Of a stretch of DNA of 64,000 nucleotides, positions 19,416-50,446 are shown piece by piece. Every line of letters starts with the position of its first letter. The first letter of the stretch is position 1. The notes under the pieces are model-generated. The model did no database searches. It was not told the origin of the DNA and saw only the letters and a program-made list of their open reading frames with translations. The DNA is taken from the NCBI GenBank assembly GCA_963824995.1, contig CAWGRK010000001.1, forward strand, positions 139,094 to 203,093. Reading direction: 5' to 3'. The position numbers and the translations under genes were made by a program. This DNA is from an uncultured Actinomycetes bacterium (GTDB lineage Bacteria > Actinomycetota > Acidimicrobiia > Spongiisociales > DATADW01).

Positions 19416-19419
19416 GTCG

Positions 19420-20723: not shown

Positions 20724-20738
20724 CCGTTGTAGGAGGAT

Positions 20739-21612: not shown

Positions 21613-21618
21613 CGACCA

Positions 21619-21792
21619 TTGGCAGAGCGCAAGGCCTTCCTCCTACGAATCGATCCCCAGGTGCACGCCGCCCTGGAGAAGTGGGCCGCTGACGAGCTAC
21701 GCAGTCTCAACGGCCAGATCGAGTTCCTGTTGACTCAGGCGCTGCGCGATGCGGGGAGGGAGCGCCACACCGAGCGGTCGAAGGAGGGCTGA
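21619..21792 (+). CDS. Arc-like ribbon-helix-helix DNA-binding protein (57 aa; not in the ORF track)
   Basis: TTG start; [38 protein letters not shown]. Confidence 0.85.
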
Positions 21793-21795
21793 GCT

Positions 21796-24267
21796 TCAGG
21801 GACGCTGCAGGCTGATGCGCGGATCGCTCGACAGCACGGGGCACCCCGGCTGGTTGAAGGGCACATAGACCACCCCGGGCCGGATCGAGGGGTCGATCCG
21901 CACCGGCATCTCGATGTCCCCGGCGGCGCCCCGCACCACCACCGGGTCGCCGTCATGGACCCGCATCCTCAGCGCGTCGTCGGGGTGGAGATGGGCGACG
22001 GCCCCAGGCGCCAGATTTCGCCAGGCTCGGGCCCATTCGCATCAGCACGCCGTCGTCGTACATCACTCTCGCCAGGTGGAGGGCGATGGGGATGGGCCGC
22101 GCTACCAGACCGGGGTCGGCCGGCGTGTAGGTGAGCGGCTGCTCGGCACCGTCGTGGGGCACGATCACCCCATCGCGTCCCTCGAAGTCGAGGAGGTCCC
22201 AGGTGACCCCGCGGTAGGCGGGCGCAACCTCGGCTATCTCCTTGGCGATCCCCTCCGCCGAGCCGAGCCCGAGAGGTGCCCCCATCCGTCGCTGCGAGGT
22301 CGTCGAGCACCGACCAGTCGGAACGGGTCTGACCGGGACCGGACACCACCCTGTTGACCCGTTGCACCCGGCCTTCGAGGTTCGTCACCGTCCCGTCCTT
22401 CTCGGCGAACCCCTCGACGGGGAGGACCACGTCGGCGAGGCGCGAGGAGTCGGTGAGGAACTGGTCGAGCGCCACCACGAACCCTGCGGCCGCCAGCGCC
22501 TCGGCGGCGAGCGGGCCATGGGCCACATCGCGCACCGGGTCGGCACCCACCAGGAGCAGAGCATGCATGGTCCGCTCGCGCAGTCCATCGAGGATGCCGA
22601 CGCAGTCTTTCCCGGTACCGTCGGGTACGAACCCCCATGGCCGTCGCCAACTCGGCGGCCGCCGGCGAGGAAGCCTCGAGCCGCCCGGGGAGAAGACCGG
22701 GCGCCAGCCCCATGTCGAGAGCGCCGAAGGTGTTGGCCCGTCGCACCAAGGGCAGCACCTTCGACCCTTCCAGTCCGAGGACGAAGGCCGCCACCGCCTC
22801 CGCCAGTAGGGGATCGTCGGTGTACCCGGCGCGGCCCAGCAGTGCGACCGCCCCGCCCTCCAGTGCTCGGCGGGCGTCGGCGAAATCGCCCTCACCCTCG
22901 GCCAGCCGGCGGAGAGTCTCGGGACCTTCTCCGGGCCGGTAGTCGAACTTCCAGGTGGCCCGGTCGTCGAGACCGGTGCGCCGCGGGTGGACCACGATCA
23001 GAGGGACGTCCACGCTCCTGGGCGGCCCGCCGGACCCGCAGGTAGAGGCTGCCCATCTCCTCCTTGAGGTCCGGTCCCCAGAGGAGGATGGCGCCCGCCT
23101 GTCCACGTCGGCGATCCGGGCTCGGCGCTCCACACCCACCAGAAGCCGTGGGTCGAGACCGTCGTCCATTTGGGCATCGACGTTGTCGGTACGCGACCGT
23201 CACCCGGAGGAACTTGGAGAGGGCATACGCGTCCTCGTTGGTGCCACGGGCACCGCCCAGCGCCGCCACCGCCGATCCATCGTGCTGCTCGATCACCTCA
23301 CCCAGCCGACGGCGCCACCAGGTCGAGCGCATCCCCCCATGCGGCGACGGCCAGTTCACCGTCTTCGCCGCGGATCAAGGGCTCGGTGAGACGGTCGGAG
23401 GAGTGGACATGCTCGAAACCGAAACGCTCCTTGTCGGTGAGCCATCCCTGGTTGGTGCCGTCGTGGTCGATGGCGTTGCACCGCAGGACCCTGTTCTGGC
23501 TCGTCTGGACGACATCCGTGCAGTGCACGGTGTCGTGCACCGAGCAACTCTCCACCATCCGCAGGTCCCAGGGACGGGCGCGGAACCGGTACGGGGTGGC
23601 GGTGAGCGCCCCCACCGGGCAGATCTGGACCGTGTTCCCCGAGTAGTAGGAACGGAACGGCTCGTCGGGGAAGGTGTTGACCTGGGTGCCGTACCCGCGG
23701 TCCTGGAACTCGATCAGCGGGTCACCGGATATCTCCTCGGAGAAACGGGTGCAGCGGGCGCAGAGGATGCACCGCTCCCGGTCGAGCAGCACCAGGTCGG
23801 AGATCGGTATCGGCTTCTCGAAGTGCCGCTTCTCCTCGACGAACCGGCTCTCACCCGGTCCGTACGCCATGGTCTGGTCCTGTAGCGGGCACTCCCCACC
23901 GCGGTCACAGACCGGGCAGTCGAGCGGATGGTTGATGAGGAGGAACTCGAGGATCCCCTCCTGGGCCTTCTTGACGGTGTCCGAGTTGGTGATCACCGAC
24001 ATGCCCTCGGCCACCTTGGTGGTGCAGGCGGTCGTCATCACGACCCCGCGGGGGGTCTCCAATTCGACAAGGCACATCCGGCACATGCCCACCGGGTTCA
24101 TCCGCGGGTGCCAGCAGAACCTGGGGATGTAGTTGCCCACCTGCTGGGCGGCCTCGATCACCAGTGAGTTCTCGGCCGCGTCGACCGGGCGCCCGTCGAT
24201 CTCGATCGGGAACCGTGGTCGGGCCCGTGTCCTCCACGGGGATGTCCGCACCTCCGCTGCTGGTCAT
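21796..24267 (-). CDS. nuoG: NADH-quinone oxidoreductase subunit G (several frameshifts)
   Basis: PRFCWH...MCRMCLVE, NHPLDCPVCDRGGECPLQDQ, CILCARC, ICPVGALT and AEKDGTVTNLEGRVQR. Confidence 0.93.
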
Positions 24268-25560
24268 GCGAGCGGACACCGTCCTTCGTGGATATGGGCT
24301 TGCGCCTCGTCTTTGAAGTACCTCATCAGAGAGGTGATCGGCGACACCGCCGATGGGCCCAGGGCGCAGATCGTGGTCATGGCGGGTGGCCAGCGGAGAC
24401 CCGGGCTGATGTTGTCAGAGACATCGAGCAGGACGTCGAGGTCGATCTCCCGCCCGTTGCCGGACTCGATCCGGGTGAGGATCATCTCCATCCAGGTGGT
24501 GCCTTCTCGGCAGGGGGTGCATTGGCCGCATGACTCGTGGGCGAAGAAGCGGACCAGCCGCTCGGCGGCGCGCACCATGCATGTGGTGTCGTCCATCACC
24601 ACCACCGCGCTCGATCCCAACATCGAGCCCGCCTGGGCGCAGGCGTCCTTGGTGATGGGCAGGTCGAGATGGTCGGTGGGGACGAACCAGGGGGAGGAGG
24701 CGCCTCCAGGTATCCACGCCTTCAGCTCGTTGTCGTCGCGCATCCCCCCCGCCACTTCGAAGATCAGCTCCCGCCAGCGTGGGGCCGTGGGGAAGCTCGT
24801 AGTTGCCCGGTCGGCGAACGTGCCCCGACACCGAGAACATGAAGGTGCCGGTGTCCACCGGGTCACCCAGTACCCGAAAAGCGTCGGGGCCCATCTCCAG
24901 GACGTGTGGGAGGTTCGAGATGGTCTCGACGTTGTTGACGATGGTGGGCTTCATGTAGAGCCCGATCGCAGCGGGAAGTAGGGCGGCTTGAGCCGGGGCT
25001 CGCCGCGCTGGCCTTCGAGGCTGTTGATCAGCGCGGTCTCCTCGCCGCAGATGTAGGCACCGGCGCCGAGATGGACGGTCAGTTCGAGGTCGAAGTCGCT
25101 CCCGAAGATCCCCGGTTCCGAGATAGCCGGAGGCGTACGCCTCCTCCACCGCTTGCTGCAGCCGACGGGCCGGCTTGGGGTATTCGCCACGGATGTAGAC
25201 GAAGGCGTGGTGCACCTCGTTGGCGATGGCGCAGATGATCATCCCGTCGACCAACTGGTGGGGATCCCGCTCCAGCAACTGCCGGTCCTTGAAGGTGCCC
25301 GGCTCGGACTCGTCGGCGTTGACCACCAGATAGGCGGGCCGGTCCTTGCCGAGGAAGCTCCACTTCATCCCGGCGGGGAAGGCGGCACCTCCGCGGCCCA
25401 GTAGTCCCGACGCCTTGGCCAACTCGACTAGCTCGTCCCTCGACATCCCAACGGCTCGCCGGGCCTGCTCGTAACCCTCGGTGGCCAGATAGCGGTCGAG
25501 GGTGTTGCTGTCCGCCGGGTACTCGGTCATCCGGGCGGTCACGACGAGCGGCCTGTTCAC
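24264..25560 (-). CDS. nuoF: NADH-quinone oxidoreductase subunit F (frameshifted)
   Basis: [36 protein letters not shown] and [13 protein letters not shown]. Confidence 0.95.
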
Positions 25561-26178
25561 TCCCGCCTCCTCTTCAACCACCGTCCCGAAAGGTTGGAAG
25601 GCGGGGACCGGCCCGGAAACGCCAAGGCGGTCCTTGATCGCCCAGTCGAAAGACGTGGCCCCACCGAACCGACGCTGCAGATCCTCGGCCACGATCACCT
25701 CGGGCTCTTCGGCCAGTAGCCAGGCGACCATCGCCTCGGCGCGCTCGGGGGTCAGGCCCTCGACCAACTCGTAGTTGATCTGGACGGCGGGGGCACCGCC
25801 GCAGGCGCCGATGCACTCGACGTGCTCCACCGACACCCGGCCATCGGCGCTGGTCTCGCCGTGGGGCACCCCGGTGACCTCCTCGACTGCGTGGAGGACG
25901 TCGTCCCCACCGAGCAGCATGCAGCTGATCGAGGTGCACACCGACACCAGGTAGCGGCCGACCTCGGGTTTGTACATGGTGTAGAAGCTGGCAACAGCGA
26001 GAACCTGCGCCGGGGTCTGCCCGGTGAGCTCGGCGACCTGGGCCATCCCTTCGCGGGTGAGCCGGCCGTCGTGACGCATGGCCAGATAGAGAAGGGGCAT
26101 CGTCGCCGAGCGCTTCTCCGGGTAGGAGGCGATCAGCGCGGCGGCCCGCTCCAGCGTCTGGGGCGACCAGCGGCTCAC
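25557..26178 (-). CDS. nuoE: NADH-quinone oxidoreductase subunit E (reads into nuoF as assembled)
   Basis: VASFYTMY, VCTSISC and ECIGACGGAP supply the 2Fe-2S ligands. Confidence 0.92.
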
Positions 26179-26259
26179 TGCGTGGAGACTAGAGAGCGCT
26201 CTGGGGGTCTCCCAATCACAAGTCGGCAATGAAAGCCTCACCGGGAGGGGCAGACCCGG

Positions 26260-27927
26260 TCAGTCGGTCAAGGTGCGCGCCGTGGCGAGGTCGGGGGCGA
26301 TTCCCCACCAGACGTTTGGTCCGTCGCAGGCGACGACGGCGCTGCGGCCGCTGTCCTCTCTTGCTGCTCGCTCCCGCTCACCCTCGGTGTCGGACTCGCT
26401 GGCGTCGGGGAAAGCGGCACGCTCCAGGGCGAGCACGGTGTCGCACAACGGTGCCGAGCCCTCACCGCCGTCGACCATGGTGACGGATACCGCGCTGTCG
26501 TCGCCATCTGTCCAGAGGACTATCTCTCCCCCATCCCACGCCGCGGCCCGCTCCTTGGCATCGGTCAAGGCCGCTTCCCGATCCCCACCCGGCGATCGGG
26601 CGAGCAGGTAGAGGTCGGCGGCACCGAAGGTGGTGCGGCGCTGCTCCTCCCAGGTCCCGCCGGGGCGTCCGCTCCCGGGTGCGGTGCTCGCCTCGTATGC
26701 GGCGAGATAACGCTCGGGGAACATCACCTCGGACGTAGTGAGGGGCGGTTGGTCGTAGGCGGCATCCACCGCTTCCAAACCGCCGTCGGCCATCAAGGCG
26801 CAGGTCAGCCCGAGGCCCTCGTTGTAGGGGAACTGAACCGCATCGCCAAGGTACGGGGGCAGCGATTCGAGGTCCTGCTGGGCACCGAGGACGGACGGGT
26901 CGAGCAGCGAGCCCATCAGAGCCATGGGGTCGAGCGCCCCGCCGGCGTAGCGCTGCATCGCCACCGTGGCGTCTCCCTCGACGAGCGAGAGGGCGGCGAG
27001 TGCCTGGTCGGGGTCGGCGGCATCGTCCTCCACCGCCGCGGGGAAGGAAAGCACCTGGTCGGTGAGCGCGTGCGTCTGCTCGTGGGCGAGCGCGACCTGG
27101 TCGATGGCGGCGAGGGTCTCGCCTTCGCTGCCCGTCCTGACCACCAGCTCGCCGGTATCGGGGTCGTAGAAACCGGCGACGCCGCTCCCCAGCATCTCGG
27201 ACTGTGCCTCGACCAGATCGGTCCCAAGGGGAATGGCACCGAGCGCCGCCAGGATGCGCGCATCCTGATCGGCGACGTCCGCCGGATAGTCCTCGGCGAC
27301 GATGGCGGCGATGCGGTCCTCCATCCCGGCGGAGTCCACGAATGTCGGAGTGACTTCGGAAGTGAACTCCAACTGTCGGATCTGCTCGACCGCATCTGCG
27401 ATCGAGGCCACCTGCGCCTCGAGCGAACTGGCGTCGATCTCGAGCTCCGTCTCGCCACCGAGCAGGCATGACGGGTCGATGCCGCCCTGGCCACCGAGCA
27501 GGCCTTCGAGACCGGAGGTGCCTCCTTCACCGCCGAGCAGGCCCCCGAGCAGATCTTCCATCGACCCGGCGTCGCCACCGAGCAGGCCCCCGAGGAGATC
27601 TTCCAGCGATTCAGCGTCGCCGCCACCGAGCAGGCCCCCGAGAAGATCTTCCAGCGACCCCTCTTCTCCGCCGCCGAGCAGACCGCCCAGGAGATCCTCG
27701 ACCGGTGGCTCCGCTTCCGCCTCGGCGAGGCGGGCCTCCAGGTCGGCGATCTGCGCTTCCTGCTCGGCCACCTGCGCTTCGAGAGCTTCGATCCGCTCTT
27801 CGGCGGCTGTCAGGCTTTGCTGCCTGTCGTAGCCCCAGACGGCGGCGCCTACCAGTGCCAGCACCAGCACGATCGATACCACGATGGCCGATACCGGCCA
27901 CCGCTGATTGCTCGGGGGAGTCGTCAC
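26260..27927 (-). CDS. Membrane-anchored putative zincin metalloprotease with coiled coil and EDLLGGLLGG repeats
   Basis: N-terminal TM; coiled coil; GFYDP; AHEQTHALTDQ (HExxH); LVEGDA; FPYNEG. Confidence 0.75.
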   Translation of the reverse strand: MTTPPSNQRWPVSAIVVSIVLVLALVGAAVWGYDRQQSLTAAEERIEALEAQVAEQEAQIADLEARLAEAEAEPPVEDLLGGLLGGGEEGSLEDLLGGLLGGGDAESLEDLLGGLLGGDAGSMEDLLGGLLGGEGGTSGLEGLLGGQGGIDPSCLLGGETELEIDASSLEAQVASIADAVEQIRQLEFTSEVTPTFVDSAGMEDRIAAIVAEDYPADVADQDARILAALGAIPLGTDLVEAQSEMLGSGVAGFYDPDTGELVVRTGSEGETLAAIDQVALAHEQTHALTDQVLSFPAAVEDDAADPDQALAALSLVEGDATVAMQRYAGGALDPMALMGSLLDPSVLGAQQDLESLPPYLGDAVQFPYNEGLGLTCALMADGGLEAVDAAYDQPPLTTSEVMFPERYLAAYEASTAPGSGRPGGTWEEQRRTTFGAADLYLLARSPGGDREAALTDAKERAAAWDGGEIVLWTDGDDSAVSVTMVDGGEGSAPLCDTVLALERAAFPDASESDTEGERERAAREDSGRSAVVACDGPNVWWGIAPDLATARTLTD

Positions 27928-27985
27928 GGTCGAGCAGCGTATCTGGACACGGTCGCTATATCGGCCGGTAGCGTGGCAACCCCAT

Positions 27986-28008
27986 GCTGGTGGAGCGGGA
28001 CCACCAGC
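27986..28008 (-). terminator. GC hairpin downstream of nuoD, possible terminator
   Basis: GCTGGTGG-N7-CCACCAGC 8-bp stem about 55 nt after the nuoD stop; no U-tract. Confidence 0.35.
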
Positions 28009-28061
28009 TGGCTCGGCTTCACGATCTACGTAGTGCTGCCGTCGCTCGGAGGCGGAGATAC

Positions 28062-29450
28062 CTAGCGGTCGACGTCTCCCATCACCGGGTCGAGCGAAGC
28101 GATGGTGGCCACGGTGTCGGCGACCAGCGAGTCGGCCATCATGATGGGGAGGGCTTGGAGGTTGGCGAAGGACGGGGCGCGGATGTGGCACCGCCATGGC
28201 TTGGCGCTGCCGTCGGAGACGATGTAGCACCCCAACTCACCACGAGGAGACTCGACCGCCTCGTAGACCTCGCCCTCGGGAACCTTGAAACCCTCGGTGA
28301 AGATCTTGAAGTGGTGGATCAGCGCCTCCATCGACTCGTCGATCCGGGCCCGCGGTGGTGGCGTCACCTTGCGATCCTCGGTACGCCAGTCGCCGAGGGG
28401 CATCCGCTCCGCCACCTGACGCGCGATCCGAAGCGACTGAAGGATCTCCTCGACACGGATCAGATAGCGGTCGTAGACGTCGCCGTTCTCACCGGTGATC
28501 ACATCGAAGTCGTACTGCTCGATGCCGGAGTAGGGCTGGGTCTTGCGGAGGTCCCAATCCACGCCTGCCGAGCGGAGGGTCGGCCCAGTGATCCCGTAGC
28601 CGAGGCACTCCTCGGGGGTGATCACCCCGATGTGTCGGGTTCGCTCCAGCCAGATCGGATTGTGCTTGAGCAGGTCGTCGTACTCGCCCAGCTTGGCGGG
28701 GAGGATCTCGATGATGTCCTCGACGTCGTCTTCCCACCCGGGTGGCAGGTCCGCAGCCACTCCTCCCGGACGGATGTAGTTGTGGTTCATCCGCAAACCC
28801 GTGACCTTCTCGAAGAAGGCGAGGACCGTCTCCCGTTCGCGGAATCCGTAGAGCATCATCGAGATGGCGCCGATGTCCATCCCGTTGGTGGCAAGGGCGA
28901 CGAGATGGCTCGACACCCGGTTGAGCTCGGTCATGAGGATCCGTATCGCCTGGGCGCGGGGCGGAACCTCAATCTCGAGCAGACGCTCCACCGCCATCGA
29001 GAAGACCAACTCGTTGTGGAGCGGCGCCAGGTAGTCCATCCGGGTGACGTTGGTGGGTCCCTGGAGGTACGTGAGGGTCTCTCCCGTCTTCTCCATCCCG
29101 GTGTGGAGATAGCCGATGATCGGCTTGGTCCGCCTGATGATCTCCCCCTCCAACTCGACCTGGAGCCGGAGGACGCCGTGGGTCGAGGGGTGCTGGGGCC
29201 CCATGTTGACGATCATGCGCTCGTCGTCGGGTGATTCGGACTCGATGATGTAGTCGTCACCTACGACGGTGCCCAACTGCTCGGCGAGCCGGGCGCCGGA
29301 CTCCACCTGCTCCATCTCCTGGCTGCCTTCGTCGGTGGAGCGGAGCATCCAATCGCTCTCCTCGCTCCCCGCCACCCACATGTCGGCGACCCGGGTCTCG
29401 GGCGGATCTTCGACCGCGGTGGTGACGTCTCGGTCGTCTTCGCTGGACAT
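28062..29450 (-). CDS. nuoD: NADH-quinone oxidoreductase subunit D
   Basis: NMGPQHPSTHGVLRL, IGYLHTGMEK, ESPRGELG and DPVMGDVDR. Confidence 0.96.
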   Translation of the reverse strand: MSSEDDRDVTTAVEDPPETRVADMWVAGSEESDWMLRSTDEGSQEMEQVESGARLAEQLGTVVGDDYIIESESPDDERMIVNMGPQHPSTHGVLRLQVELEGEIIRRTKPIIGYLHTGMEKTGETLTYLQGPTNVTRMDYLAPLHNELVFSMAVERLLEIEVPPRAQAIRILMTELNRVSSHLVALATNGMDIGAISMMLYGFRERETVLAFFEKVTGLRMNHNYIRPGGVAADLPPGWEDDVEDIIEILPAKLGEYDDLLKHNPIWLERTRHIGVITPEECLGYGITGPTLRSAGVDWDLRKTQPYSGIEQYDFDVITGENGDVYDRYLIRVEEILQSLRIARQVAERMPLGDWRTEDRKVTPPPRARIDESMEALIHHFKIFTEGFKVPEGEVYEAVESPRGELGCYIVSDGSAKPWRCHIRAPSFANLQALPIMMADSLVADTVATIASLDPVMGDVDR

Positions 29451-29976
29451 CACACCACCTTGGGAGCGCCCTTGAACTGCACCGGGACCGCCCCCACCTG
29501 ATAGTCCTTGCGCAGTGGGTGGCCGATCCATTCGTCGGGCATCAGGATCCGTGTCATGTCCGGATGGTCGGTGAACTCGATCCCGAACATGTCGAACACC
29601 TCCCGCTCGAAGAAGTTGGCACCGGGCCAGATCGGAGTCAGCGAGGGAATCTCCGGCTCGTCGGCGGGCACCGGGACACGCAGCCGGAGGCGCAGGTTGT
29701 GACGGTGAGACAGAAGGCCCGCCACCACCTCGAAGCGGATCGGCCTGGTGCGAAGGAAGTCGACCGCGGTCACGTCGACGCATACCTCGAAACCGGTGTC
29801 ACGCGCCGACTCGGCCAACCGTTGGAGCGTCTCTCGGGGCACCACCGCCACGTTCTGACCGAGCGATGGCGCCCACTCGACATCCTCGAACGGCTCGAGC
29901 AGGTCGCGCAGAACGGGATGCTCTGGCAGTGCCCGGGCCGGTGGCTCTTCCTCGGTCGCAGTCTCGTTCGTAGTAG

Positions 29977-29980
<4 letters not shown>
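29450..29980 (-). CDS. nuoC: NADH-quinone oxidoreductase subunit C (start uncertain)
   Basis: [19 protein letters not shown] and GHPLRKDY. Confidence 0.92.
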
Positions 29981-30458
<478 letters not shown>

Positions 30459-30462
<4 letters not shown>

Positions 30463-30578
30463 CAGGCTGCTTCCTTGTTGGTGCGGGGGGACGACCCCCC
30501 TGCACCCCCCGACCGCGAACGGCTCGGGCACGGAACAACGGGGACGAGGGCGCTCGCATCCATCAGGCTGCTTCCTTG
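30459..30578. mobile_element. 82-bp palindromic insert flanked by a 19-bp direct repeat at the nuoA/nuoB junction
   Basis: CCATCAGGCTGCTTCCTTG at 30459-30477 and 30560-30578; internal hairpin GTGC-G6-ACGA-C6-T-GCAC at 30481-30505. Confidence 0.7.
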
Positions 30579-30976
30579 CCCGACTCGACCTGTGCCTGGT
30601 AACGGGCACGGCGAGGGACGTTCCAGTCGAGAGCCCCACGCCGCCATACGTAGACCAGCGTCTCCAGCACGAGGAGGGTGAAGATGCCGATCGCCACCAC
30701 TCCGTACCAACCGAGTTCGGTGAAGCGGGATGCCCAGGCGAACAGGAAGATGATCTCGACGTCGAAGATGACGAACAGCATCGCCACCAGATAGAACTTG
30801 ACCGGGAAGCGCTGCACCGGCTCGACCTCGGGGACGATCCCGCACTCGTACGGCGCCAGCTTCTCCGGCGTGGGCTTCTTGGGCGACAACAGGTAGGAAG
30901 CGCCGAGCGACACCGCCACGAAACCTGCGGCGAGCAGGAACATGAAGGCGATCGGGAGGTATTCGCCGAGCTCCAA
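30563..30976 (-). CDS. nuoA: NADH-quinone oxidoreductase subunit A
   Basis: [23 protein letters not shown] and RRGALDW. Confidence 0.95.
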
Positions 30977-40017: not shown

Positions 40018-40638
40018 ATGCGCCGTCCGATCCCCCGAGCCACGGTGGCCCGGTTCCCCCTTTACCTCCAGGCGCTGGAGAGCATTGGCTCGGATGAGCC
40101 CACGGTCTCATCCGAACGGGTGGGGACACTCACCAACGTGACCGCTGCCAAGGTGCGCAAGGACCTCTCCTACCTCGGATCGCAGGGGGTCCGGGGTGTC
40201 GGGTACGACGTCGAGCACCTGCGGGGCAGGATCGAGCGCGAGTTGGGGCTGACCCACGACTACCCGGTTCTCATCGTCGGCGTCGGCAACCTGGGTTCGG
40301 CCCTCGCCAATTACAAGGGCTTCGCCGAACGTGGGTTCTTCATCGCCGGGTTGTACGACGCCGACCGCCAGAAGGTCGGGCGCCGAGTCGACGGTCTTCG
40401 AATCCGCCACATCGACCAGTTGGAGGAGGATGCCTCCCATCTCGGCGCCGCCATAGGAATCATCGCCACCCCCGGTGGTGCCGCCCAGGAGGTGGCAGAG
40501 CGTCTGGAACGCGCCGGTGTCCGCTCGATCCTCAACTTCGCCCCAGCCACGATCCGGGTGGCTCCACCCGTGGTGGTCCGCTCGGTGGACCTGTCGACGG
40601 AGTTGCAGATACTGAGCTACTACTTGAGCAGGGCGTGA
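40018..40638 (+). CDS. rex: Redox-sensing transcriptional repressor Rex
   Basis: IPRATVARFPLY, KVRKDLSYLGSQGVRGVGYDV, VGVGNLGSAL and ILNFAP. Confidence 0.96.
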   Translation: MRRPIPRATVARFPLYLQALESIGSDEPTVSSERVGTLTNVTAAKVRKDLSYLGSQGVRGVGYDVEHLRGRIERELGLTHDYPVLIVGVGNLGSALANYKGFAERGFFIAGLYDADRQKVGRRVDGLRIRHIDQLEEDASHLGAAIGIIATPGGAAQEVAERLERAGVRSILNFAPATIRVAPPVVVRSVDLSTELQILSYYLSRA

Positions 40639-40712: not shown

Positions 40713-41066
40713 TTAGGCCCGTTCCTGGTTCTGCTCGAAGCGGGCGAGAGCGGTGAGGAACATGGCGAAGAGGATGCCCGAGGCGAGCATGTAGGCCATG
40801 GGGATGATGCGGATCTCGAAGGCGTTGAGGCCCTCGATGTCCACAGGGCGGGGACCGCGAGGGGCGTAGAGGACGAAGAGGAGGCTGTTGATCGTGATCC
40901 ACCCGAACGTGGCTGTGCCCGTCAGCAGGAAGGCGAGGCGGCTACCCAGGTTGGTGTAGAGCAGCAGGTATACGGCGCCCAGGAAAACGATGATCGCCAC
41001 CAACACCAAGAGCACACCGGTAATGGTGAGATTGGCCGAGAGGATGCTCCGGAACAGCTCGCGCAT
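40713..41066 (-). CDS. Small 3-TM membrane protein, last gene of the Rieske/cytochrome b operon
   Basis: GGAGG SD; three hydrophobic segments; starts 2 bp after the cytochrome c stop. Confidence 0.75.
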   Translation of the reverse strand: MRELFRSILSANLTITGVLLVLVAIIVFLGAVYLLLYTNLGSRLAFLLTGTATFGWITINSLLFVLYAPRGPRPVDIEGLNAFEIRIIPMAYMLASGILFAMFLTALARFEQNQERA

Positions 41067-41068
41067 CT

Positions 41069-42770
41069 CTACCTCCCGGTGAGCGTGGGACCGCGCAGGT
41101 AGCGGGTGATCAACTCGATGTCCTCCTGTTGGAGCACCTGGCCGAAGCCGGGCATCCGGCCGGTGCCCATGCCGTTGACGCCGTAGCCGATGTTGGCCTC
41201 TGACCCATTGATGAGAAAGTCGATCATGTCGGCCTCGTCGGTGAACTGCACGTTTGGCCGGTTGTTCCAGAGGGCGGGGCCGAGTCCGCCGGCGCCCGCC
41301 TGCAGCGTGAAGGGCACGCCGGCCGACCAATCGGAGGTGTGGCAGCGGGCGCAGTAGGCGTTGAAGAGGCCTACTGCCCTCGATGCCTGATCGACGTCGC
41401 CTTCGAAGGTCGCCTCGGCCACGGCGTCGACATCAACCTCCCAGGCCTTCTCCTCCTGCGCGCTGAGAAGGAAGTCGAGACCCTGCTGCGTCTGTTCGGT
41501 GAGTCGTTCTTGGTTGGCTGCGGACACGCCGAGCGACGTGGCAAGCGATTCGAGGGCGCTCACCGCTTGGCGGGCCACGACGATATCCGGCTGGGAGCCA
41601 TCGGTCTGCGGGTTCTGGGGGTCCAACGCGACGGCGGGAAGCTCGGTCGGCTCGAGCAGTTGCTGGGCCTGTGCGAGCAGAGACGAGATGCGGTCCTCCG
41701 CAGCATCCGAGAGTCCGTCGCCGTCGAGATCCTCGCCATCTCCAGCCTCGTCGAGGGCAGTTGCGGCGTCCTCTGCCACCAGACGCAGTGCGGGAGCCTC
41801 TTCGGCCACCTGCTCGAGCGACGCCACCATGGCTTCGGCGGTTTCGGCGTCCGGGGTCCCTTCCACCGACTCGGGGCTCTCGGGATCGAGCGTCTCGACG
41901 AGGAGGCCCTCGGGGACCAATGCCGCCCTCGTCTCGTCAACGATCTGGACGAGTTCGGTCTCGGCTGTGTCCGACAGACCGTCGCCGTCGGCGTCAACAC
42001 CCTCTCCACCGACCTCCACCAACTCGGCGGCACGCGGTGGCGGCATCGAGCGCCGCCGGCGCCCGACCGGGCGCCGCCGCGATGTCGGCGAGCAACTGCT
42101 CCTGATCGACGATCGCCTGATCGACACTGCGGTCGGCCTGGTTGAGCCGCTGCAGTTGCAGGTCCACAGAAGGGTCGATCTTGGCCAATGCCGCCTGCTG
42201 GTCGATCTGCTGGGTCCGCAGATAGTTGATCACATCGGATATCTGCTGCTGGTCGAGCGGACCACCACCCTCGGTCCCCCAAGCGGGCATCGGGGTGTTG
42301 GCTCGCCCGTAGACGATCCAGTAGCGGATCTCTTCGTCGTTGTAGCGGAAGAACACGTCGTTGAGCGCAGGGGCGGCCCAATTGACGTTGATCCCACTCC
42401 TCTGTTCGACGTAGCTGGCACCACCACCGCTCCAGTCGGCGCCGTGACAGTCGGTGCAGCCCACCGAGGCGACCACCTCGGCGCCCCGCTCGAGCGACTC
42501 CTCGTTGAACTGCTCGACGAAGCCAGCCTGCCTGTCCTGCTCGCCCAGGTAGTAGATGGGGAGATAGAAGGCGAGGAAGCCGGTGAGCACCACGGCCGCC
42601 GCCTGCACCTTCTCGAGCCGCTTGCTCTCGAGCTCGTCGTCGGTCTTCCCGGGGGCGACATTGCGTGGCACATCCCCGCTGCTCCGGTTGCGGATGCTGG
42701 AGGCGACGAGGAAGGCGAGCCAGCCCACGACGAGCACGGCCACCACCGCGATGACGATGGTGGCGGTCAA
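41069..42770 (-). CDS. Membrane-anchored diheme cytochrome c (frameshift near 42030)
   Basis: Two TMs; CTDCH with PMPAW; CARCH with RMPGF. Confidence 0.85.
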
Positions 42771-42795
42771 CAGACCTCCATCAGGATGGCGCCCA

Positions 42796-43704
42796 CTACT
42801 CCTCCGCGGGGACTTCCTCGGTGACGATGCCGATGCAAGACGGACCCTGGGGATACTCGACCACCCGATCGGTGGCCCGGGCGGTCTCCACGATGGTGCC
42901 GGTCTTGATGACCAGGTTGCCTTCGATCACCTCGACGCCGAAGCGGTCGAGGTTGCGTGGTGCCGGACCGGCGAAGTACTCGCCGACCGAGTCGTACTTC
43001 GATCCGTGGCAGGGGCACTCGAATCCCTGCGATGGCTGACACCAGGGGACCCGGCATCCCAGGTGGACACACCGCTGATACAAGGCGATGAGCCCTTCGG
43101 CGGAAGTGTCGGTGTCGGCGAACTGCGACCGCGCCAACTCCTCTTCGGAGATCGGCAGGATGTAAGCGCGCGCCGACGGGATGAACACCGGTGTGACCGA
43201 CCCATCGGGTTGGACCAACTCGGTCGACAGGTCCTCCACAGAGCCAGCCACGACATCGCTGCCAAAGCCGCCCGAGATCTTGGGCCACACCATCGCCAGC
43301 ATCGAGACGCCGAGGATCGCCGAGAAAGCACCAAAGGTGGCGGTCAACGCCCGGTTGAAGAACTGACGGCGTGTCACGCCCATCTCCTCAGGAGAAAGCT
43401 CTTCGAACCGCTCCTCCTCGACCACCCGGAGCGGACCTTGCTCCACGGGTTGCAGCACCCCCGCCTCCGGTTCGGGCGCGGGAGCAGGAGCCTCCTCCTC
43501 CACTTCCACCTCGGGGGCGCCGACCGTGACCAGAGCCATGGGGCCATCGGTGCGGTCCGCAGCGACCGTCTCCCTGCTCACGGTACGTCTCCATGCCTGC
43601 TGGGCATCCTTGGACCCGCGCCTGGCTGCGATGGCGAAAGCGCCGACGGCGGCTGCGATGCACACCACGGCGATAGCGAGCAGCAGCAGCTGGAGAGTCG
43701 TCAT
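42796..43704 (-). CDS. Rieske 2Fe-2S subunit of a menaquinol:cytochrome c reductase
   Basis: CVHLGC and CPCHGS boxes, GPAPRNL, and an internal TRRQFF twin-arginine motif. Confidence 0.93.
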   Translation of the reverse strand: MTTLQLLLLAIAVVCIAAAVGAFAIAARRGSKDAQQAWRRTVSRETVAADRTDGPMALVTVGAPEVEVEEEAPAPAPEPEAGVLQPVEQGPLRVVEEERFEELSPEEMGVTRRQFFNRALTATFGAFSAILGVSMLAMVWPKISGGFGSDVVAGSVEDLSTELVQPDGSVTPVFIPSARAYILPISEEELARSQFADTDTSAEGLIALYQRCVHLGCRVPWCQPSQGFECPCHGSKYDSVGEYFAGPAPRNLDRFGVEVIEGNLVIKTGTIVETARATDRVVEYPQGPSCIGIVTEEVPAEE

Positions 43705-44830
43705 TCGAACGAGATCCAGTCCGACAGATCGTCGAAGAAGATCCCGTCTGACCATGGGTAGGAGAAGTTGAACCCCTGGCCCCGGAAGAGGACTCCGATG
43801 ATGGTGAGGGTGGTCGCCCCGGCGAGGAAGAAGGTGAACATGATGATGGCGAACTTCCGGTCGGATGGCTTGGTGGACGGGTTGCGGTCGAAATAGGGGA
43901 CCGCCATCAGACCGATGAGCCCGAAGGTCGGCACCAGGACCCCGGCCACCTGGGGGTCGAAGTAGGAGAGCAACTCCTGAAGCCCGAGGAAGTACCACGG
44001 CGCCTTCGACGGGTTCGGAGTCTCGTTGAAGTTGGCCGCCTCCAGAAGGGGCGCCTGGAGGACGACCGACATGACGACCAGCAGGCCGGTCATCGCCAGC
44101 AGGCTGGCGAACTCGGCGATCATCAGATGGGGCCAGGTGTTTACCTTGTCGGTCGGCTCGGTCTTGACCTGCTGGATCGCCTTCGCCTTGACAACGGTGA
44201 GCAACCGTTGAGTGCGAACCCCTTCGGGCACTCCGGTCGGCGCCGCCACCGGCCTGGCAGCGACCGCCGCGGCCACCCGCCCAGCACCGGCTGCGGCAAC
44301 GGGGACGGGTTCTTCGTCGTCCGCTCCCCCGTCGGGAGCGCCGGCACCATTGCCCGCAGGGGGAGGCGTGGATGAACCGGCGCCATCGCCGCCGACAACC
44401 GGCTGGGGCTGCTCCGCCGCCGGTGACTCAACCTCCGCCGCCGGCTCGGGCTGCTCTGCCTCCGCCGCCGGTGACTCAACCTCGGCCGCAGGCTCGGGCT
44501 GCTCTGCCTCCGCCGCCGGCTCAGGCTGGTCAGCTTCGGCGACCGCTTCCGGCTGCTCCACTTCGGCGGCGCGCTCAACCTGCTCAGCTTCAGCAGCTGG
44601 CTCCACCTGTTCGGCTTCGGCTGCTGGAGCCTCTTCCGCGGGATCGTCTGCCGTCCGCCGTCCGCCGTCCGCCGTCTCTTCCGGAGTTGCCGTCTCTTCC
44701 TCCGCCGTCTCCTCCTCTGGGGCGTCGCCTCCCCCCGCATCTCGGCGAGCACTTGCTCGACCGGGATGCCAAGCGCTTTCGCCTTGGCCTCGGCCGACCG
44801 GCGGAGCAGGCTCTCGGGAATCTCAGGCAT
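43701..44830 (-). CDS. Cytochrome b6 subunit IV-like (PetD-like) protein with a long acidic N-terminal extension (frameshift near 44720)
   Basis: TWPHL, TPNPSKAPWYFLGLQELL and PYFDRNP; three TMs. Confidence 0.85.
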
Positions 44831-44839
44831 AGAAGCTCC

Positions 44840-45646
44840 TCACAGCGGTCCCGAGATCCCGCCATCCTTCCGGACCCGCCAGAAGTGGACGGCCATGAAG
44901 ATGACGATGATGAAGGGGAGGAAGAGGACGTGGAGCACGTACCACCTGAGCAGGGTATTGGCAGTCACCTCGGCTCCACCGAGTAGAGCGAACTTCACCT
45001 GGGCACCGAACACCGGGACGAAACCAGCCATGTTGGTCCCCACGGTCACAGCCCACAGCGCCAATTGGTCCCAAGGGAGCAGGTACCCGGTGAACGACAG
45101 GAGCAGGGTCAGGAGCAGGAGTACGACCCCGACTATCCAGTTGAACTCACGCGGTGGCTTGTAGGCGCCGTGATAGAAGACCCGGCTCATGTGGAGGAAC
45201 ACGGTGAGCACCATCAGGTGCGCCCCCCAGCGGTGCATGTTCCGCACCAGCGAGCCAAAGGCGACGCTGGTGGAGAGCGCCTGGGCATCGGCGTAGGCCT
45301 GGGTGGCGGTCGGCGTGTAATAGAACATGAGGAAGATGCCGGTGATGGTCAGCAGGATGAAGAGGAAGAAGCTGAGCCCACCAAGGCAGAGCGTGTAGGA
45401 GAGTCGGACTCCGTGCCGCTTCACCTTCACCGGGTGCAGGTGGTACAGCACGTTGTTCATGATCACGTACGAGCGGTTGCGCGGCGTGTCGGTGTAGCCC
45501 TGCTTGAAGGGCGACCCGGGGCGGAACACCGACTCCCAGAGCGACGAGGTGCGCATCTTGTCGCCCGCCTCGCCCATCCGTTCGCGGAGTCTCAGCCCAC
45601 CGTTCCCGTTCCCGTTGCCGCTGCCGTTGCCGTTTGCCATCACCAC
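44840..45646 (-). CDS. Cytochrome b6-type split cytochrome b (PetB-like N-terminal part)
   Basis: [13 protein letters not shown]...[16 protein letters not shown]...H; ends GISGPL. Confidence 0.93.
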
Positions 45647-46083
45647 CTAACCCCATAGGTGTACCCGTTCTTGAAATCTCGCTGGCCGGTGTCTACCTCC
45701 CATGGCACAAGACCGGCCTCCGCCGCCTGTTGCGCCAGCGATCCCTCGAACTTTCCGAGGGTGATGACGTTTGTCGGGCAGCGGTCTACGCACAAGGCGC
45801 ACCTGGTGCACTCGTCTTCGTCCACCACGAAGAACCCGTAGTTGGTGCCGTCACCCTTCGGATCGGACACCCCCACCGCCTCGGTGATCGCCTCGAGCGA
45901 GAGGTAGTGGATGCACTTCCACGGGCAGATGTCGACACAGCCCTCACAGAGGATGCACTCCGACTGGTCGATGTGTAGGAACTGCTTGGGTCGCAGCTTG
46001 TCCTTGAAGTAGTCGGTCTCCACCAGTGCAAGCTGGTAGTCGTCACGGAAGGGAGGGGTCTCGTCGACCACACCGCGTGGCAT
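45640..46083 (-). CDS. 2[4Fe-4S] ferredoxin
   Basis: [12 protein letters not shown] and [12 protein letters not shown]. Confidence 0.9.
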
Positions 46084-46691
46084 CAGTCGTCCATCCGGAT
46101 CAACGGCCGGCCATATGGCGAGGTGCGGGCCTTTGGCTCATCGCCGCCGGGGGGAATCTTCCCCCAGTCCTGGAGGAGGTAGGCGACCACGATCCAAGCG
46201 GCGAACACCACCACGTAATAGCCGCCGGAGATGGCGTCCTTGATCACCCCGGAGCTGATCTCGACCTCGTTACCGAGTACCAGCCAGGGAGGGATGGTGA
46301 AAGCGATGTTCTGGCTCGTCCAGCCGAGCGGGCCCTGGCTGAGGTTGAGCCACTCCGAGGGGACCACGCCGAAGAGGAGGACGAACTCGATCCAGGTGAT
46401 AAAGGCACCGAACGAGGCACGGGCCCATGTGAGGGGTTGGTTGGCGACCCAGATCATGGCGGCACCGAACAGCATCATCTGCGAGCCGGCGAAGGCGATC
46501 AATTGGCCGGCGGTGAACCACAGCCAGCCCCGGGGAATGAAATCGAAGATACCGCGATCGACCTCCGGCGGGAGGAGGGCGAAATGGGCAATCAGGACGC
46601 CCAACACGATCGCTGGGATACCGAGCAGCAACGCGGCCCAGCCGAGCCTCAACCGCTGCGACTCGTCCAGCCGGCTCAGTCGGGCGATCAC
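46083..46691 (-). CDS. Uncharacterised 4-TM membrane protein, first gene of the cytochrome b operon
   Basis: Hydrophobic segments; TGATG overlap with the ferredoxin; C-terminal SPYGRPL. Confidence 0.7.
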   Translation of the reverse strand: MIARLSRLDESQRLRLGWAALLLGIPAIVLGVLIAHFALLPPEVDRGIFDFIPRGWLWFTAGQLIAFAGSQMMLFGAAMIWVANQPLTWARASFGAFITWIEFVLLFGVVPSEWLNLSQGPLGWTSQNIAFTIPPWLVLGNEVEISSGVIKDAISGGYYVVVFAAWIVVAYLLQDWGKIPPGGDEPKARTSPYGRPLIRMDD

Positions 46692-46872
46692 CTCAGGTCC
46701 CCTGCTCCTTCCCTGACGGCAGCCGGTTGGCGCCGCCGCACCGGTACGGCCCCATCCTTGCACACGCTGGTAAAACGCGGGGAATCGCGCCCCGCTCGAT
46801 GGAGCCCCAGATGACGACCCTCTTCAGCGGCTACCCGGCTCGTTATCCTCCGGCGACCATGGAGGGATCGGC

Positions 46873-48291
46873 ATGACCGAAGATCAGGACTCCGCCGCCC
46901 GCCTCCATCTCTTCGCCTCGGTTGCGTTCGCGGTGGCCGCCGGTGTGCTCCTGGTGGCGCTCTTCCTTTCGCTGCGATTCCCGGACGCCGTCGGGCAGCT
47001 ACCCCAACTCACCTATGGGCGGCTCAAGCCGATGATGCTCACCACGGCGGTGCTCGGTTGGTTGACGCTGGCCGGCATCGGCGCCGTCTACTACCTGCTT
47101 CCCCGGCTGACCGGTACGCCGATGTGGGGTGAGCGCATCGCCCGGCTCAACCTCATGGCGGCCATCCCGATCTATGCGGCCGCCTCGCTCTCACCGATGT
47201 TCGGGCTCTCGTCGGGTCAGGACCTGCTCGAGGTCCCCTGGTATCTCGACCTGCTGGTTCTGGCGACGCTGGCTGTTCCACTCGGAGTCACCGTCCAAAC
47301 GCTCCGGCGCCGCACCGAGGAAGGCATCTACGTCTCGCTCTGGTATGTGGTGGCCGGGGTTTTCGCCGCATTCGGACTCTGGCTGGTGGGCAACATCCCC
47401 GGCGTCATCGGGGACCTGCCCGGGCTCGGCGGGATGACCACTGCCCTCCAGAGGGTGATGTTCTCCTCGGGGTTCCTCACGCTTTGGGTCGTTGGGATCG
47501 GTATCGGTACCGCTTACTACCTGCTCCCCAAGGAGACGGGGAACCCACTCTTCAGCCGGGGCCTGGCGGCGGCAGGGTTCTGGTCGGTCGTGCTGGCGGC
47601 GCTGTGGGCGGCGCCATCAGCCCTCACCCATACCCCGATTCCCGGCTGGACACAGACCGTGGCGGCGGTGATGGCGCTCGGACTGGTGATCCCGGCACTG
47701 GCCGTTGCCACCAACTTCGCCGGGACGCTCCACGGCAGGTGGGATACGTTCACCAACTCGCTACCGGTCAGGTTCGCAGTGGCTGCCACCTCGTTTCTCG
47801 TGCTGGTCACGCTCGCCTCGGCGGGGAGGGGGTTCCCATCGGTGTCGACCGTCGTCGGTTTCACGCCCACCGCTGACGCCGTACTCATCGTCACCGTCTT
47901 CGGTGTCGCCGGTCTCTTCTCCGCCGCCTTCACCTATCACGCCATTCCCCGCATCGCCGGCAGGCAGGTGTTCAGTACCTTCTCCGGGCGGCTCCACCTG
48001 CGGATGGCGGCACTGGGAAGCGCCGCCCTCGGGATCCTGCTCTGGGTCACCGGGACCGTCACCGGTTACACCTGGGTGGGAGCCGCCCGAACCGGAGCGT
48101 TCGTGGCCGCCGGAGAGGGTTGGGCGGAGGTGGAGGGCTCGACCCTCGTCTTCACCAGCCTGCTGCCGCTCGCCGCCCTCCTCGTCGCGGTAGGGCTGGC
48201 AGCCTTCGGGTACAACGTGCTCAGGTCGTACACCTCCGGGGAGACGGTGCCCCAAGAGGTGCTGGTGGCGTCTGGGACCGAAGATGGCTGA
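46873..48291 (+). CDS. CcoN-like (cbb3 subunit I fold) protein lacking the heme/Cu histidine ligands
   Basis: TYGRLKP, YYLLPRL, IYVSLWY, YYLLPKETGNPLFS and PGWTQT align with CcoN; intact 472-aa ORF; ligand His positions substituted. Confidence 0.8.
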   Translation: MTEDQDSAARLHLFASVAFAVAAGVLLVALFLSLRFPDAVGQLPQLTYGRLKPMMLTTAVLGWLTLAGIGAVYYLLPRLTGTPMWGERIARLNLMAAIPIYAAASLSPMFGLSSGQDLLEVPWYLDLLVLATLAVPLGVTVQTLRRRTEEGIYVSLWYVVAGVFAAFGLWLVGNIPGVIGDLPGLGGMTTALQRVMFSSGFLTLWVVGIGIGTAYYLLPKETGNPLFSRGLAAAGFWSVVLAALWAAPSALTHTPIPGWTQTVAAVMALGLVIPALAVATNFAGTLHGRWDTFTNSLPVRFAVAATSFLVLVTLASAGRGFPSVSTVVGFTPTADAVLIVTVFGVAGLFSAAFTYHAIPRIAGRQVFSTFSGRLHLRMAALGSAALGILLWVTGTVTGYTWVGAARTGAFVAAGEGWAEVEGSTLVFTSLLPLAALLVAVGLAAFGYNVLRSYTSGETVPQEVLVASGTEDG

Positions 48292-49131
48292 CGCCGAACT
48301 CCTCTCCCAAGCCTCGGCAGCGCTCGGTGTCCCCGAGCCCATCGTGCAGCGTTCGGCGGCGGCGAGGGCCACCGCCAACGGCGTGGACGTCGACGAGGTC
48401 CTCCGGGCGTGGGCCGGGGGAGGCGCCGTGGCTGCGGGGACCCCGTCGGAGGCAGCGTCGGAGGGGGCAGAACCGGCAGCGGCGGCTGAGGCTGAGACGG
48501 CTGCGGAAGAGACGGCGGACGGCGGACGGCGGACGGCGGAGGAAGAGGCGGCACCGGAAGAGGCGGCTCAAGCACCGCACCAGCGGCGGCAGCTGTGGCG
48601 GTTCCCGCTGCAGCGTGGCGGTGGCGGCCGCGGTGGTGGAGCGGCCTCGGGTCATTCCGATTCTCGAAGGGTCGCAGGGAGAGCCACTGGAAGCTCATAT
48701 TCGGAGTGGTCGGGTTGCTGACTCTTGGCCTTCTCGGTGGTTGGGTGCTCCCCGCTCTCGACACGCTCGACGACCCCGGAGCGCCGGCCGCCCTCACCGC
48801 AGCCGGGACCGAGGGCCGCCGGATCTATCTGCGCGAGGGTTGCCAGTCGTGTCACACGCAGGTGGTCAGGGCGATCGTGACCGACGCCGGGTTGGGTCCG
48901 GTGTCGAACGCCGGGTCCGTTGCAGGTTTTCCGGGCGACACCATCGGTTCGGTCCGTTACGGGCCTGACCTCACCCACTTCGGGAGCCGTGAGGGAGTGG
49001 ACCTGGCCTCGGTCACGGCCTATCTCCGCAACCCCCGGGCGGCTCGCCCCGAGAGTCTGATGCCGCCGATCGACTACCTGGACGACGCCGAACTCGAAGC
49101 GCTGTCCCAGTTCCTGGTGGAGTCGAAGTGA
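48284..49131 (+). CDS. ccoO: CcoO-like monoheme cytochrome c with an N-terminal helical module and acidic linker (frameshifts near 48560-48680)
   Basis: GRRIYLREGCQSCHTQVVR, GSVRYGPDL and ESLMP. Confidence 0.8.
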
Positions 49132-49153
49132 GGATCGTCCATAGGATGCAGGC

Positions 49154-50338
49154 GTGAGCGACGAACAGCTGGCAGCGGCTGCCGCAGCGCTCAACGCCCC
49201 CGAGGCAATTGTCAGGCGCTCCGCCGAGGCGCGGGCCAAGGCCGACGGGATCCCGGTGGAGCAGGTGCTGACGGCGTGGGCTGGTGGGGAGAGCACACCG
49301 AAGACGGAAGACGGAAGTCGGAAGACGGAAGATGAAGCGGCGCCGCCGCCCGCAGCCGAAGAGACGGCAGACGGCGGACGGCAGACGGCAGCCACTGAAC
49401 GCGACGGCAGACGGCGGACGGCAGACGGCAGCAGAACCAGGAGCGGAGGCACCAGGCGCGGTTCCGGCGGTTCCGGCCGTCGCCGCAGCGGCTGTCGCCG
49501 ACATTCCCGACTTGCCGCCGGCACCGGAGACGGTCTCGCCGGCGGCGGCCATGGATTACCCCGAGGTGATCTCGGTCCCCACCGCCGGGATAAAGGAGCG
49601 GACCGGGGGTGGCGTTCCCGGCTGGCTGACCAGCGTGTTCGTGGCCGTCCCGCTCTTCGCTCTCTTCTACCTCATCTCGAACGCGGGCGGAGTCGAGTGC
49701 GGCGAGGGCGGCGCGCTTGCGGTGAGCCCGATCTCGGGTGAACTGGTCAACTGTGATGGAACCCCATACGAAGGATCGGGCGCCGGCGGCGGGGCGGGCG
49801 GTGACTTCCTCGCCGTGGGAGAACAGGTGTACGCCGAGGTCGCCGCCTGTCAGGGATGCCATGGAGACCAGGGACAGGGCGGCGTCGGGCCGCCGCTGTC
49901 GGGGGGGGCGGTGCTCACCACCTTCGGCAGTTGCGAGGACCACGTCACCTGGGTGCGGCTCGGAACCCAGGGTTGGGCAGCCGAGGTCGGGGAAACATAC
50001 GGGGACAGTGGCAAGCCGGTGGGTGGGGGCGGGACCATGCCCGGGTTCTCCACTCTCAGCGACGAGCAACTCCGGGCGGTCACCTACTTCGAGCGGGTCC
50101 GGTTCGGCGGGGCCAATCCCGAGGAGGCGCTGGCGGACTGCGGCCTCGGCGAGCCGGCGGGCGGTGAGGGTGGAGGCGGTGAGGAAACCGGGACCACTGT
50201 GGTCGGGGAAGATGGGAGCGACCGAGACCACCGTGGCCGGGGAAGAGTGGGGCGACCGAGACCACCGTGGCCGGGGAGGGCGGGGCGACCGAGACCACCT
50301 TGGCCGGGGGCGGCGCCGCCACCACCGCGGCGCCATAG
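49154..50338 (+). CDS. Membrane-anchored monoheme cytochrome c with an N-terminal helical module and Thr-rich tail (frameshifts)
   Basis: One TM; CQGCH; TMPGF; tail ...TETTLAGGGAATTAAP*. Confidence 0.8.
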
Positions 50339-50353
50339 GGCGACAGGTCCCGT

Positions 50354-50446
50354 TTGCGCCCTGCCACCACGTTCGTGATCCTCGCCCTATTGGCGGTCAT
50401 CGCCATCGCCGGAGCGATCATCGCAGTCCAGCTTCTCAGCCGCTGA
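50354..50446 (+). CDS. 30-aa single-TM small protein (not in the ORF track)
   Basis: TTG start; MRPATTFVILALLAVIAIAGAIIAVQLLSR*; GC3-rich codons; 15 bp after the cytochrome c stop. Confidence 0.55.
   Translation: MRPATTFVILALLAVIAIAGAIIAVQLLSR

Follow-up and report, generated by a model that had tools for sequence, protein, structure and literature searches.

The 64,000-nucleotide stretch analysed here, which we call the window, comes from an uncultured bacterium of the class Acidimicrobiia (assembly GCA_963824995.1, contig CAWGRK010000001.1, positions 139,094 to 203,093) and contains a cytochrome bc operon next to genes for CcoN-like, CcoO-like and cytochrome c proteins. Three respiratory subunits encoded there, namely PetD (subunit IV of the bc complex), the CcoO-like protein and a membrane-anchored monoheme cytochrome c here named CytP, begin with one small helical domain, the tag, followed by a long linker. 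As far as sequence comparison can tell, the tag behaves like a portable docking tag. The choice of its carriers, its multiplication in tandem, its movement as a cassette, its loss upon subunit fusion and its survival past catalysis point to a binding module on a leash, and we favour, just short of calling it probable, the reading that it is a leashed docking domain binding one common third partner in the cytoplasm.

The three peptides lie where the preliminary description had placed them, with starts at 44830 on the minus strand and at 48284 and 49154 on the plus strand. Copy 1 (44726..44830, minus), the N-terminus of the PetD gene, is of a PetD subtype that has helices 2 and 3 only and ends in VLAEM. 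Copy 2 (48284..48424, plus), at the N-terminus of the CcoO-like monoheme cytochrome c, is of a three-helix Trp subtype, to which copy 3 (49154..49291, plus), at the N-terminus of CytP, also belongs. Their pairwise identities are 13, 20 and 19 over a 31-residue core, whereas shuffles of the same composition averaged 2.7-3.4 identities with maxima of 10-12 and reached the observed value in 0 of 20,000 per pair. A profile of the three window copies alone retrieved a fourth copy from the same genome that had not been used in training; it scored 60.7 bits, the runner-up 12.9 bits. The motif claimed for the three proteins is real, but the unit is longer than the one quoted at that time: it measures about 45 residues in full, and the CcoO and cytochrome c copies start with a helix that is absent from the PetD copy.

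In an alignment of 68 copies, Ser24 and Ala27 never vary, and conservation of at least 90% is seen at Pro17, Arg23, Ala25, Ala29, Gly33, Leu40 and Gly45; the face is basic and bears a conserved Arg-Ser-x-x-Ala-Arg/Lys pattern. AlphaFold2 predicts three helices (residues 4-14, 18-32 and 36-43; predicted local distance difference test score 93, predicted template modelling score (pTM) 0.74), and the N-terminal PetD tag, which starts at the Pro, is missing helix 1. That the motif is no named domain was borne out, since the best E-values were 0.02 in Pfam, 0.02 in NCBIfam and 1.4 against PDB sequences, and no known domain with an unrelated role was matched in these searches. The best ESM Atlas score for the tag was 0.79, to an unnamed cluster, Foldseek with the tag model returned nothing at E ≤0.001, and the best VIA Z of the model was 5.8, to a designed protein; we read these searches as giving no clear match, which is not proof of a new fold. 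We rate the tag as a new family within a known kind, the tethered docking domains, in an unreported use. A literature search, with supplements and subscription journals outside its scope, gave no description of the tag domain or of the histidine-less CcoN discussed below.

Several known domains and signals were considered and rejected. For homology to ANTAR, whose profile carries a conserved helix-1 AKG motif, the hhalign probability was 1.2% against 19 ANTAR domains, and PF03861 was not matched; structural comparison of the model with NasR, EutV, Rv1626 and AmiR showed three helices of similar spacing (Z 4.2-4.7, root-mean-square deviation 2.5-2.7 over 47 residues, Foldseek E 7.6), the Z range being that of a common arrangement. 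A ribbon-helix-helix domain would have an N-terminal beta strand where the model has helix 4-14 and no strand, and one member matched Arc at E 0.18 only. The C-terminal repeats of RsxC/RnfC gave negative hidden Markov model (HMM) scores against both profiles, and a twin-arginine signal was discarded because just one Arg is conserved. The peripheral-subunit-binding domain was absent from the Pfam families matched by any of the 68 members at E up to 1, and fold searches with the 47-residue helical model gave generic matches only.

For carrier counts we mapped 82 bc loci. The tag was present in 71 of 83 PetD, 48 of 51 CcoO and 52 of 56 CytP frames, the misses being contig edges or frameshifted pieces, and in none of the 76 PetB, 71 ferredoxin and 81 Rieske frames. 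The long linker that had been noted ahead of the first membrane helix is confirmed as Ala/Pro-rich (about 45-50% Ala plus Pro) and net acidic, with median lengths of 124, 72 and 91 residues in PetD, CcoO and CytP, respectively. We infer that the tag lies on the cytoplasmic side because of the known topology of subunit IV and of single-helix cytochromes. The N-terminal helix of subunit IV is described as contacting the n-side heme in the part of PMC5600118 available to us. At the DNA level, all three window linkers contain a heptamer repeat of the GACGGCG/GACGGCA type (44645-44681, 48500-48540 and 49352-49429); it forms 174 tandem arrays of 2-8 units genome-wide, with none in five shuffles of contig C6, and occurs likewise in linkers of same-genus genomes.

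The fourth tag of the window genome sits on an unannotated multi-helix membrane protein (G000:C10, L001:9806-10996, minus strand), which adjoins caa3 oxidase (cta) genes in 17 of 18 loci, the remaining locus being a 3-kb contig. It belongs to no Pfam or NCBIfam family and is a candidate new oxidase-associated subunit; homology of its C-terminal helices to the CcoN extension of genome G050 was not supported. The tag usually begins at the first residue of a protein, internal and C-terminal copies occurring too, and tandem arrays reach seven copies. In database searches the tag profile matched 460 clusters at 50% identity and 3,597 of 8,000 scored candidates at 90%, from which the best 150 and the best 120, respectively, were inspected. 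The best 150 clusters comprised 30 CytP, 15 PetD, 9 CcoO and 7 caa3-linked carriers, 83 fragments and 6 frameshifted- or chimeric-looking sequences, and every carrier that could be identified was an electron-transfer or respiratory-operon protein. Four database proteins combine 3-7 tags and one PetD helix with the last membrane protein of the operon. A metagenome search for the locus of the tag-PetD-membrane-protein fusion P0151 returned ordinary operons only. At most 0.14 of the words were present in public runs, too low a share for any statement on habitat or expression.

New proteins have gained the tag in family f16. In 7 of 24 genomes of this family, the alpha subunit of a 2-oxoacid:ferredoxin oxidoreductase carries a PetD-type tag and linker at one end or at both, and five untagged f16 genomes have a plain frame of 618-631 residues with no linker. 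NuoI is tagged in one of five f16 genomes (45.9 bits vs a shuffle maximum of 7.1); it belongs to a second nuo cluster, directly after nuoD-nuoH, and its tag is degenerate, the invariant Arg-Ser being lost. These comparisons indicate a portable tag that moved with its linker as a cassette. The identity of the new carriers, a ferredoxin-reducing enzyme and the NuoI of a second nuo cluster, would also suit a tethered ferredoxin catcher, in which the tag would capture the acidic 2[4Fe-4S] ferredoxin encoded in the bc operon, hold it on PetD, dock the other subunits to it and speed the turnover of ferredoxin-linked enzymes. The basic face of the tag agrees with such a role, and a cluster of this kind, devoid of NuoEFG, is described for Ca. 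Actinomarinales in the portion of PMC7771536 available to us. We nevertheless consider it quite unlikely, given the five genomes that follow.

Tags are kept in G012, G023, G032, G159 and G247, all of them without an intact bc operon. No orthologue of the operon ferredoxin was found in any of these five relic genomes, which are 94-100% complete, the Fer4 matches being weak and partial (37-45% identity). In family f7, all that is left of the cluster is the membrane protein together with divergent forms of PetB and PetD, the latter bearing at least two tags; neither pseudo-CcoN (the histidine-less CcoN) nor CytP was found in this family, and G012 and G023 gave no COX1 match at all. The f7 relic PetB (L167, L168 and L170) retains the four heme b histidines and has lost the Cys of CxGG, and these clusters no longer contain genes for ferredoxin, Rieske protein or cytochrome c. 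In G159 a tag array directly follows the bc-operon membrane protein. In G247 a soluble protein of 217 residues (L266:5295-5948) consists of tags and linkers only, with two tags and two tag-like helical hairpins, and the genome gave no other tag match; the gene occupies the former site of the bc operon, between a nuoA-linked reductase gene and Rex. A single-sequence model of this protein gave four separate helical hairpins (pTM 0.23) and, being made with no alignment, tells little about binding. All five relic genomes have NADH dehydrogenase (complex I), the relic tag genes are near nuoA, and NuoD and NuoF are encoded in 13 of the 13 tag-bearing genomes tested. The relic genomes thus argue that the partner would be neither the tag of another carrier nor the operon ferredoxin alone.

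These observations also bear on the function first suggested, a docking or oligomerisation tag linking the bc and Cco modules or binding a common partner such as the ferredoxin. It is supported in part, the tag behaving like a portable docking tag. A link between bc and Cco is insufficient as the whole function, because the tag is found also on the caa3-linked protein, a soluble oxidoreductase and NuoI, and because it is kept in f7, where neither CcoN nor CytP was found; the ferredoxin is weakened as sole partner because no orthologue of it was found in the five tag-bearing relic genomes.

Within a genome the tags of CcoO and CytP have been homogenised. They are 84% identical to each other there vs 64-66% for orthologues between genomes, the pair is identical in 7 of 38 cases, and in 17 of 38 the DNA is nearer to the paralogue than to any orthologue, evidently as a result of gene conversion. 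The PetD tags form a subtype of their own that varies less between genomes (81% identity), although in G045, G050 and G057 the helices of PetD and CytP are nearly the same within each genome. The homogenisation and these near-identical helices, along with the presence of one subtype on each side of the electron path, could be accounted for if the tags bound each other, homotypically or heterotypically (PetD with the Trp subtype), and so clustered the bc complex, the pseudo-CcoN module, caa3 and the ferredoxin-linked enzymes with no third partner. The G247 protein, alone in a genome with no other tag, and the f7 genomes, with tags on PetD only, would however gain little from self-binding, and the short basic helix of other orders should repel itself. 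We therefore hold tag-to-tag binding to be unlikely, if a serious contender.

Conservation in orthologues, which had been proposed as a check, was found in 41 of 41 genomes of a first panel (a tally that includes the unpublished G021). In a class-wide panel the tag was present in 69 of the 72 genomes from the order of the window genome, probably UBA5794, and in 26 of 26 of family f16, whose genomes are 0.9-1.1 Mb, with weak matches in 21 of 152 others. The weak matches represent a shortened tag that consists of helix 2 alone and occurs on PetD, often in two copies, and on CytP, and a helix-2 model matched 224 of 251 class genomes, with none among 12 f24 and 2 f27 genomes; two of these that were checked are also without this PetD. 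In other orders the form is a short basic helix that has Ile/Leu/Leu along one side and is flanked by Lys/Arg. Other actinobacterial classes (L196-L215) have a different conserved Ala/Lys-rich helix pair at the PetD N-terminus, which matches no Pfam family, and their PetD often has a second, LTPEERAARV-like linker motif; homology of this helix pair to the tag is uncertain (alignment A5, hhalign probability 10-13% over 11 columns).

The basal short helix, with its Ile/Leu/Leu side and its Lys/Arg flanks, would be suited to binding anionic lipid or curved membrane, by which carriers could be sorted into one membrane domain with no protein partner, and this would account for the soluble carriers and the tag-only protein as well. 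In the order, however, the predicted fold has helix 2 sandwiched between the other two, and a leash of 60-120 residues would be odd for an integral membrane protein to reach lipid, so that we find lipid binding improbable. Least likely of all, by a little, we judge a biogenesis or turnover signal (a site for an insertase, chaperone or protease adaptor) or a near-neutral spread by recombination of low-complexity linkers. The usual position at the first residue, the evident gene conversion and the degenerate state of one gained copy would agree with it; the internal and C-terminal tags, the retention in all of the streamlined f16 genomes and the restriction of identified carriers to electron-transfer or respiratory-operon proteins would not.

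We infer that f16, with its second, EFG-less nuo cluster and small genomes, is Ca. Actinomarina. The f16 genomes (L149 and L151) contain a complete b6-type complex III operon with ferredoxin, which, if the assignment is right, contrasts with the account in PMC7771536, where, in the part available to us, complex III is given as missing in Ca. Actinomarinales. The accessible portion of PMC12008989 lists complexes I-IV for UBA5794, with the oxidase lost from 12% of genomes, and the tag domain is unmentioned in that portion of its text on UBA5794 respiration.

The CcoN-like protein next to the tagged subunits (46873..48291, plus strand), itself untagged, is not what its homology would suggest. It aligns with the solved CcoN 3mk7 over 436 residues (residues 17-452, E 2e-28) and matches PF00115 at E 5e-30, as expected of a homologue of the CcoN membrane scaffold, and scores 163 bits against TIGR00780, whose cut-off is 583. 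At the six ligand columns for heme b, heme b3 and CuB, His is found in 0 of 66 CcoN-like sequences, which means that this pseudo-CcoN can be no conventional oxidase and the module no working cbb3 oxidase; the Cco name given at the outset is right for the homology to the scaffold and wrong if taken as an intact cbb3 oxidase. Pseudo-CcoN occurs in 89 of 251 class genomes, nearly confined to the order of the window genome and to family f16. It is fused to CcoO in several families and, in G050, to a domain that we take from its motif to be cupredoxin-like. The tag is missing from CcoO in the five loci, four of the order and one of the outgroup G045, where CcoO and CcoN are a single fused protein, which is what one would see if the tag took the place of a covalent link. 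Genome G050 has the bc operon, pseudo-CcoN, ctaCDEFG, CcoO and CytP together in one contiguous cluster.

On the docking reading, the tags would hold their carriers on one conserved partner at the cytoplasmic side and so keep the modules near each other. The histidine-less CcoN could be the scaffold on which CcoO and CytP sit, and through these two cytochromes electrons would pass from the bc complex to the caa3 oxidase; such a route, bc to CytP/CcoO on a dead CcoN to caa3, may be drawn from gene clustering, most clearly that of G050. The leashes would then do what the rigid bcc-aa3 supercomplex does in Corynebacterium and Mycobacterium. From the conserved Arg-Ser-x-x-Ala-Arg/Lys face and from the basic single helix of other orders we would expect an acidic partner, for which our leading guess is the cytoplasmic arm of complex I, a choice that takes up about a third of the confidence we place in docking itself. 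A number of points weigh against this interpretation. Complex I is present also in three tag-free genomes (G148, G063 and G078), so its presence does not single it out, and one tag, a copy without the invariant Arg-Ser, sits on NuoI itself. The relic tags could be decaying remnants, and the homogenisation of CcoO and CytP tags fits tag-to-tag binding equally well. The PetD of f59 has the ferredoxin operon and no such N-terminal extension, implying that the complex can do without a leash. All genomes, finally, are metagenome assemblies, in which absence means not found in those searched.

As assembled, each tag in the window is in a different frame from its protein body. In G001, a genome of the same genus, PetD and CcoO are each joined to the tag in one full-length frame, and the frame of the cytochrome c fusion stays open as far as the contig reaches. 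Compared with G001 the window has two extra bases near 44717, in the PetD linker, and compared with single low-depth short-read contigs of run X1 it has two extra bases at 48612/48614 and one at 49400. The sizes of the three insertions are exactly the shifts required to restore the frame, and the three linker frameshifts are probably assembly errors; programmed frameshifting of the tag genes was rejected because the relatives read in frame. The C-terminal end of CytP is possibly frame-shifted too. In the nuo operon (window 12829-30976), 10-28 kb from the cluster, many genes are split over frames, consistent with frequent indel errors in the assembly.

Behind their tags, the PetD gene continues with the Ala/Pro/Glu linker and the subunit IV body (43701..44725, minus, PF00032; the apparent 2-base frameshift near 44717 is in frame in G001), the CcoO-like gene with a linker, a membrane helix and a CcoO/FixO-like heme domain (48425..49131, plus, PF02433; apparent 2-base frameshift near 48612-48614), and CytP with a linker, a membrane helix and its cytochrome c domain (49292..50378, plus, PF13442/PF00034; apparent 1-base frameshift near 49400). 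The plus-strand order is CcoN-like, CcoO-like, CytP. The minus-strand bc operon is headed by a conserved uncharacterised membrane protein (46083..46763, conserved across the mapped loci), followed by the untagged 2[4Fe-4S] ferredoxin, a candidate partner (45640..46083, Fer4 families), the untagged PetB, a cytochrome b6-type protein with CxGG (44840..45646, PF00033), and PetD, and is completed by the Rieske protein, a diheme cytochrome c split over two frames and a small membrane protein (40713..43705). An Asn-Gly repeat tract lies at the PetB start (45600-45635, minus). The usual neighbour of the cluster is a redox-sensing repressor (40018..40638, plus), presumably of the Rex type from its Pfam pair PF06971 + PF02629. 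This gene order is kept in those of the 82 loci that are long enough to show it. With a short cytochrome b bearing CxGG, a separate subunit IV and a Rieske protein, the window complex agrees with the b6f/b6c-type definition of Rieske-cytochrome b complexes in the available part of PMC5600118.

How respiratory complexes hold together, and whether that matters, is a long-running question, and in the solved supercomplexes known to us the partners are joined by direct membrane contacts or through ordered tails. One portable domain, shared by several subunits and carried on disordered leashes, would differ from those solutions, and its parts are small, easily expressed and tested. It is a more doubtful proposition that the Acidimicrobiia wire their whole energy chain, from the ferredoxin-reducing dehydrogenase and a complex I-like enzyme through bc and the dead CcoN relay to caa3, via one such cytoplasmic tag. 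If so, respiration would be a loose, tunable network instead of a rigid supercomplex, in which copy number sets avidity and new enzymes enter by gaining the cassette. The tag is kept even in genomes of 0.9-1.1 Mb, where several hundred linker residues are costly. For annotation there is a risk that pseudo-CcoN would be tallied as a high-affinity cbb3 oxidase despite having no metal ligands.

Among known systems, the cbb3 oxidase CcoNOP has the same ccoN-ccoO-cytochrome c gene order and its CcoN is the best solved relative of pseudo-CcoN, but here the six metal-ligand histidines are absent in 66 of 66 sequences and the CcoO and cytochrome c are tagged. In E. coli RsxC, too, an electron-transport subunit bears C-terminal repeats in which Ala/Lys/Arg-rich helices follow one another in tandem, joined by short linkers; there is no sequence relationship and the analogy is of architecture only. 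In the E2 subunit of 2-oxoacid dehydrogenases, a helical peripheral-subunit-binding domain of about 40 residues on Ala/Pro swinging arms docks enzyme onto enzyme. The tag resembles it as a small helical domain on Ala/Pro-rich linkers with a putative docking role, and differs in that none of 68 members gave an E3_binding-type Pfam match and in its occurrence on membrane respiratory subunits, in 1-7 tandem copies and on unrelated carriers. A further case is the actinobacterial bcc-aa3 supercomplex, where, according to the part of PMC8795186 available to us, a 102-residue C-terminal extension of QcrB docks on CtaDEF, so that there too a protein extension on the cytoplasmic side joins complexes III and IV. 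As far as that source describes it, a long cytochrome b there ends in a tail that is rigid and ordered; in the Acidimicrobiia, PetB and PetD are split, the portable domain sits on a disordered leash, and a pseudo-CcoN/CcoO/CytP module would stand between the two complexes.

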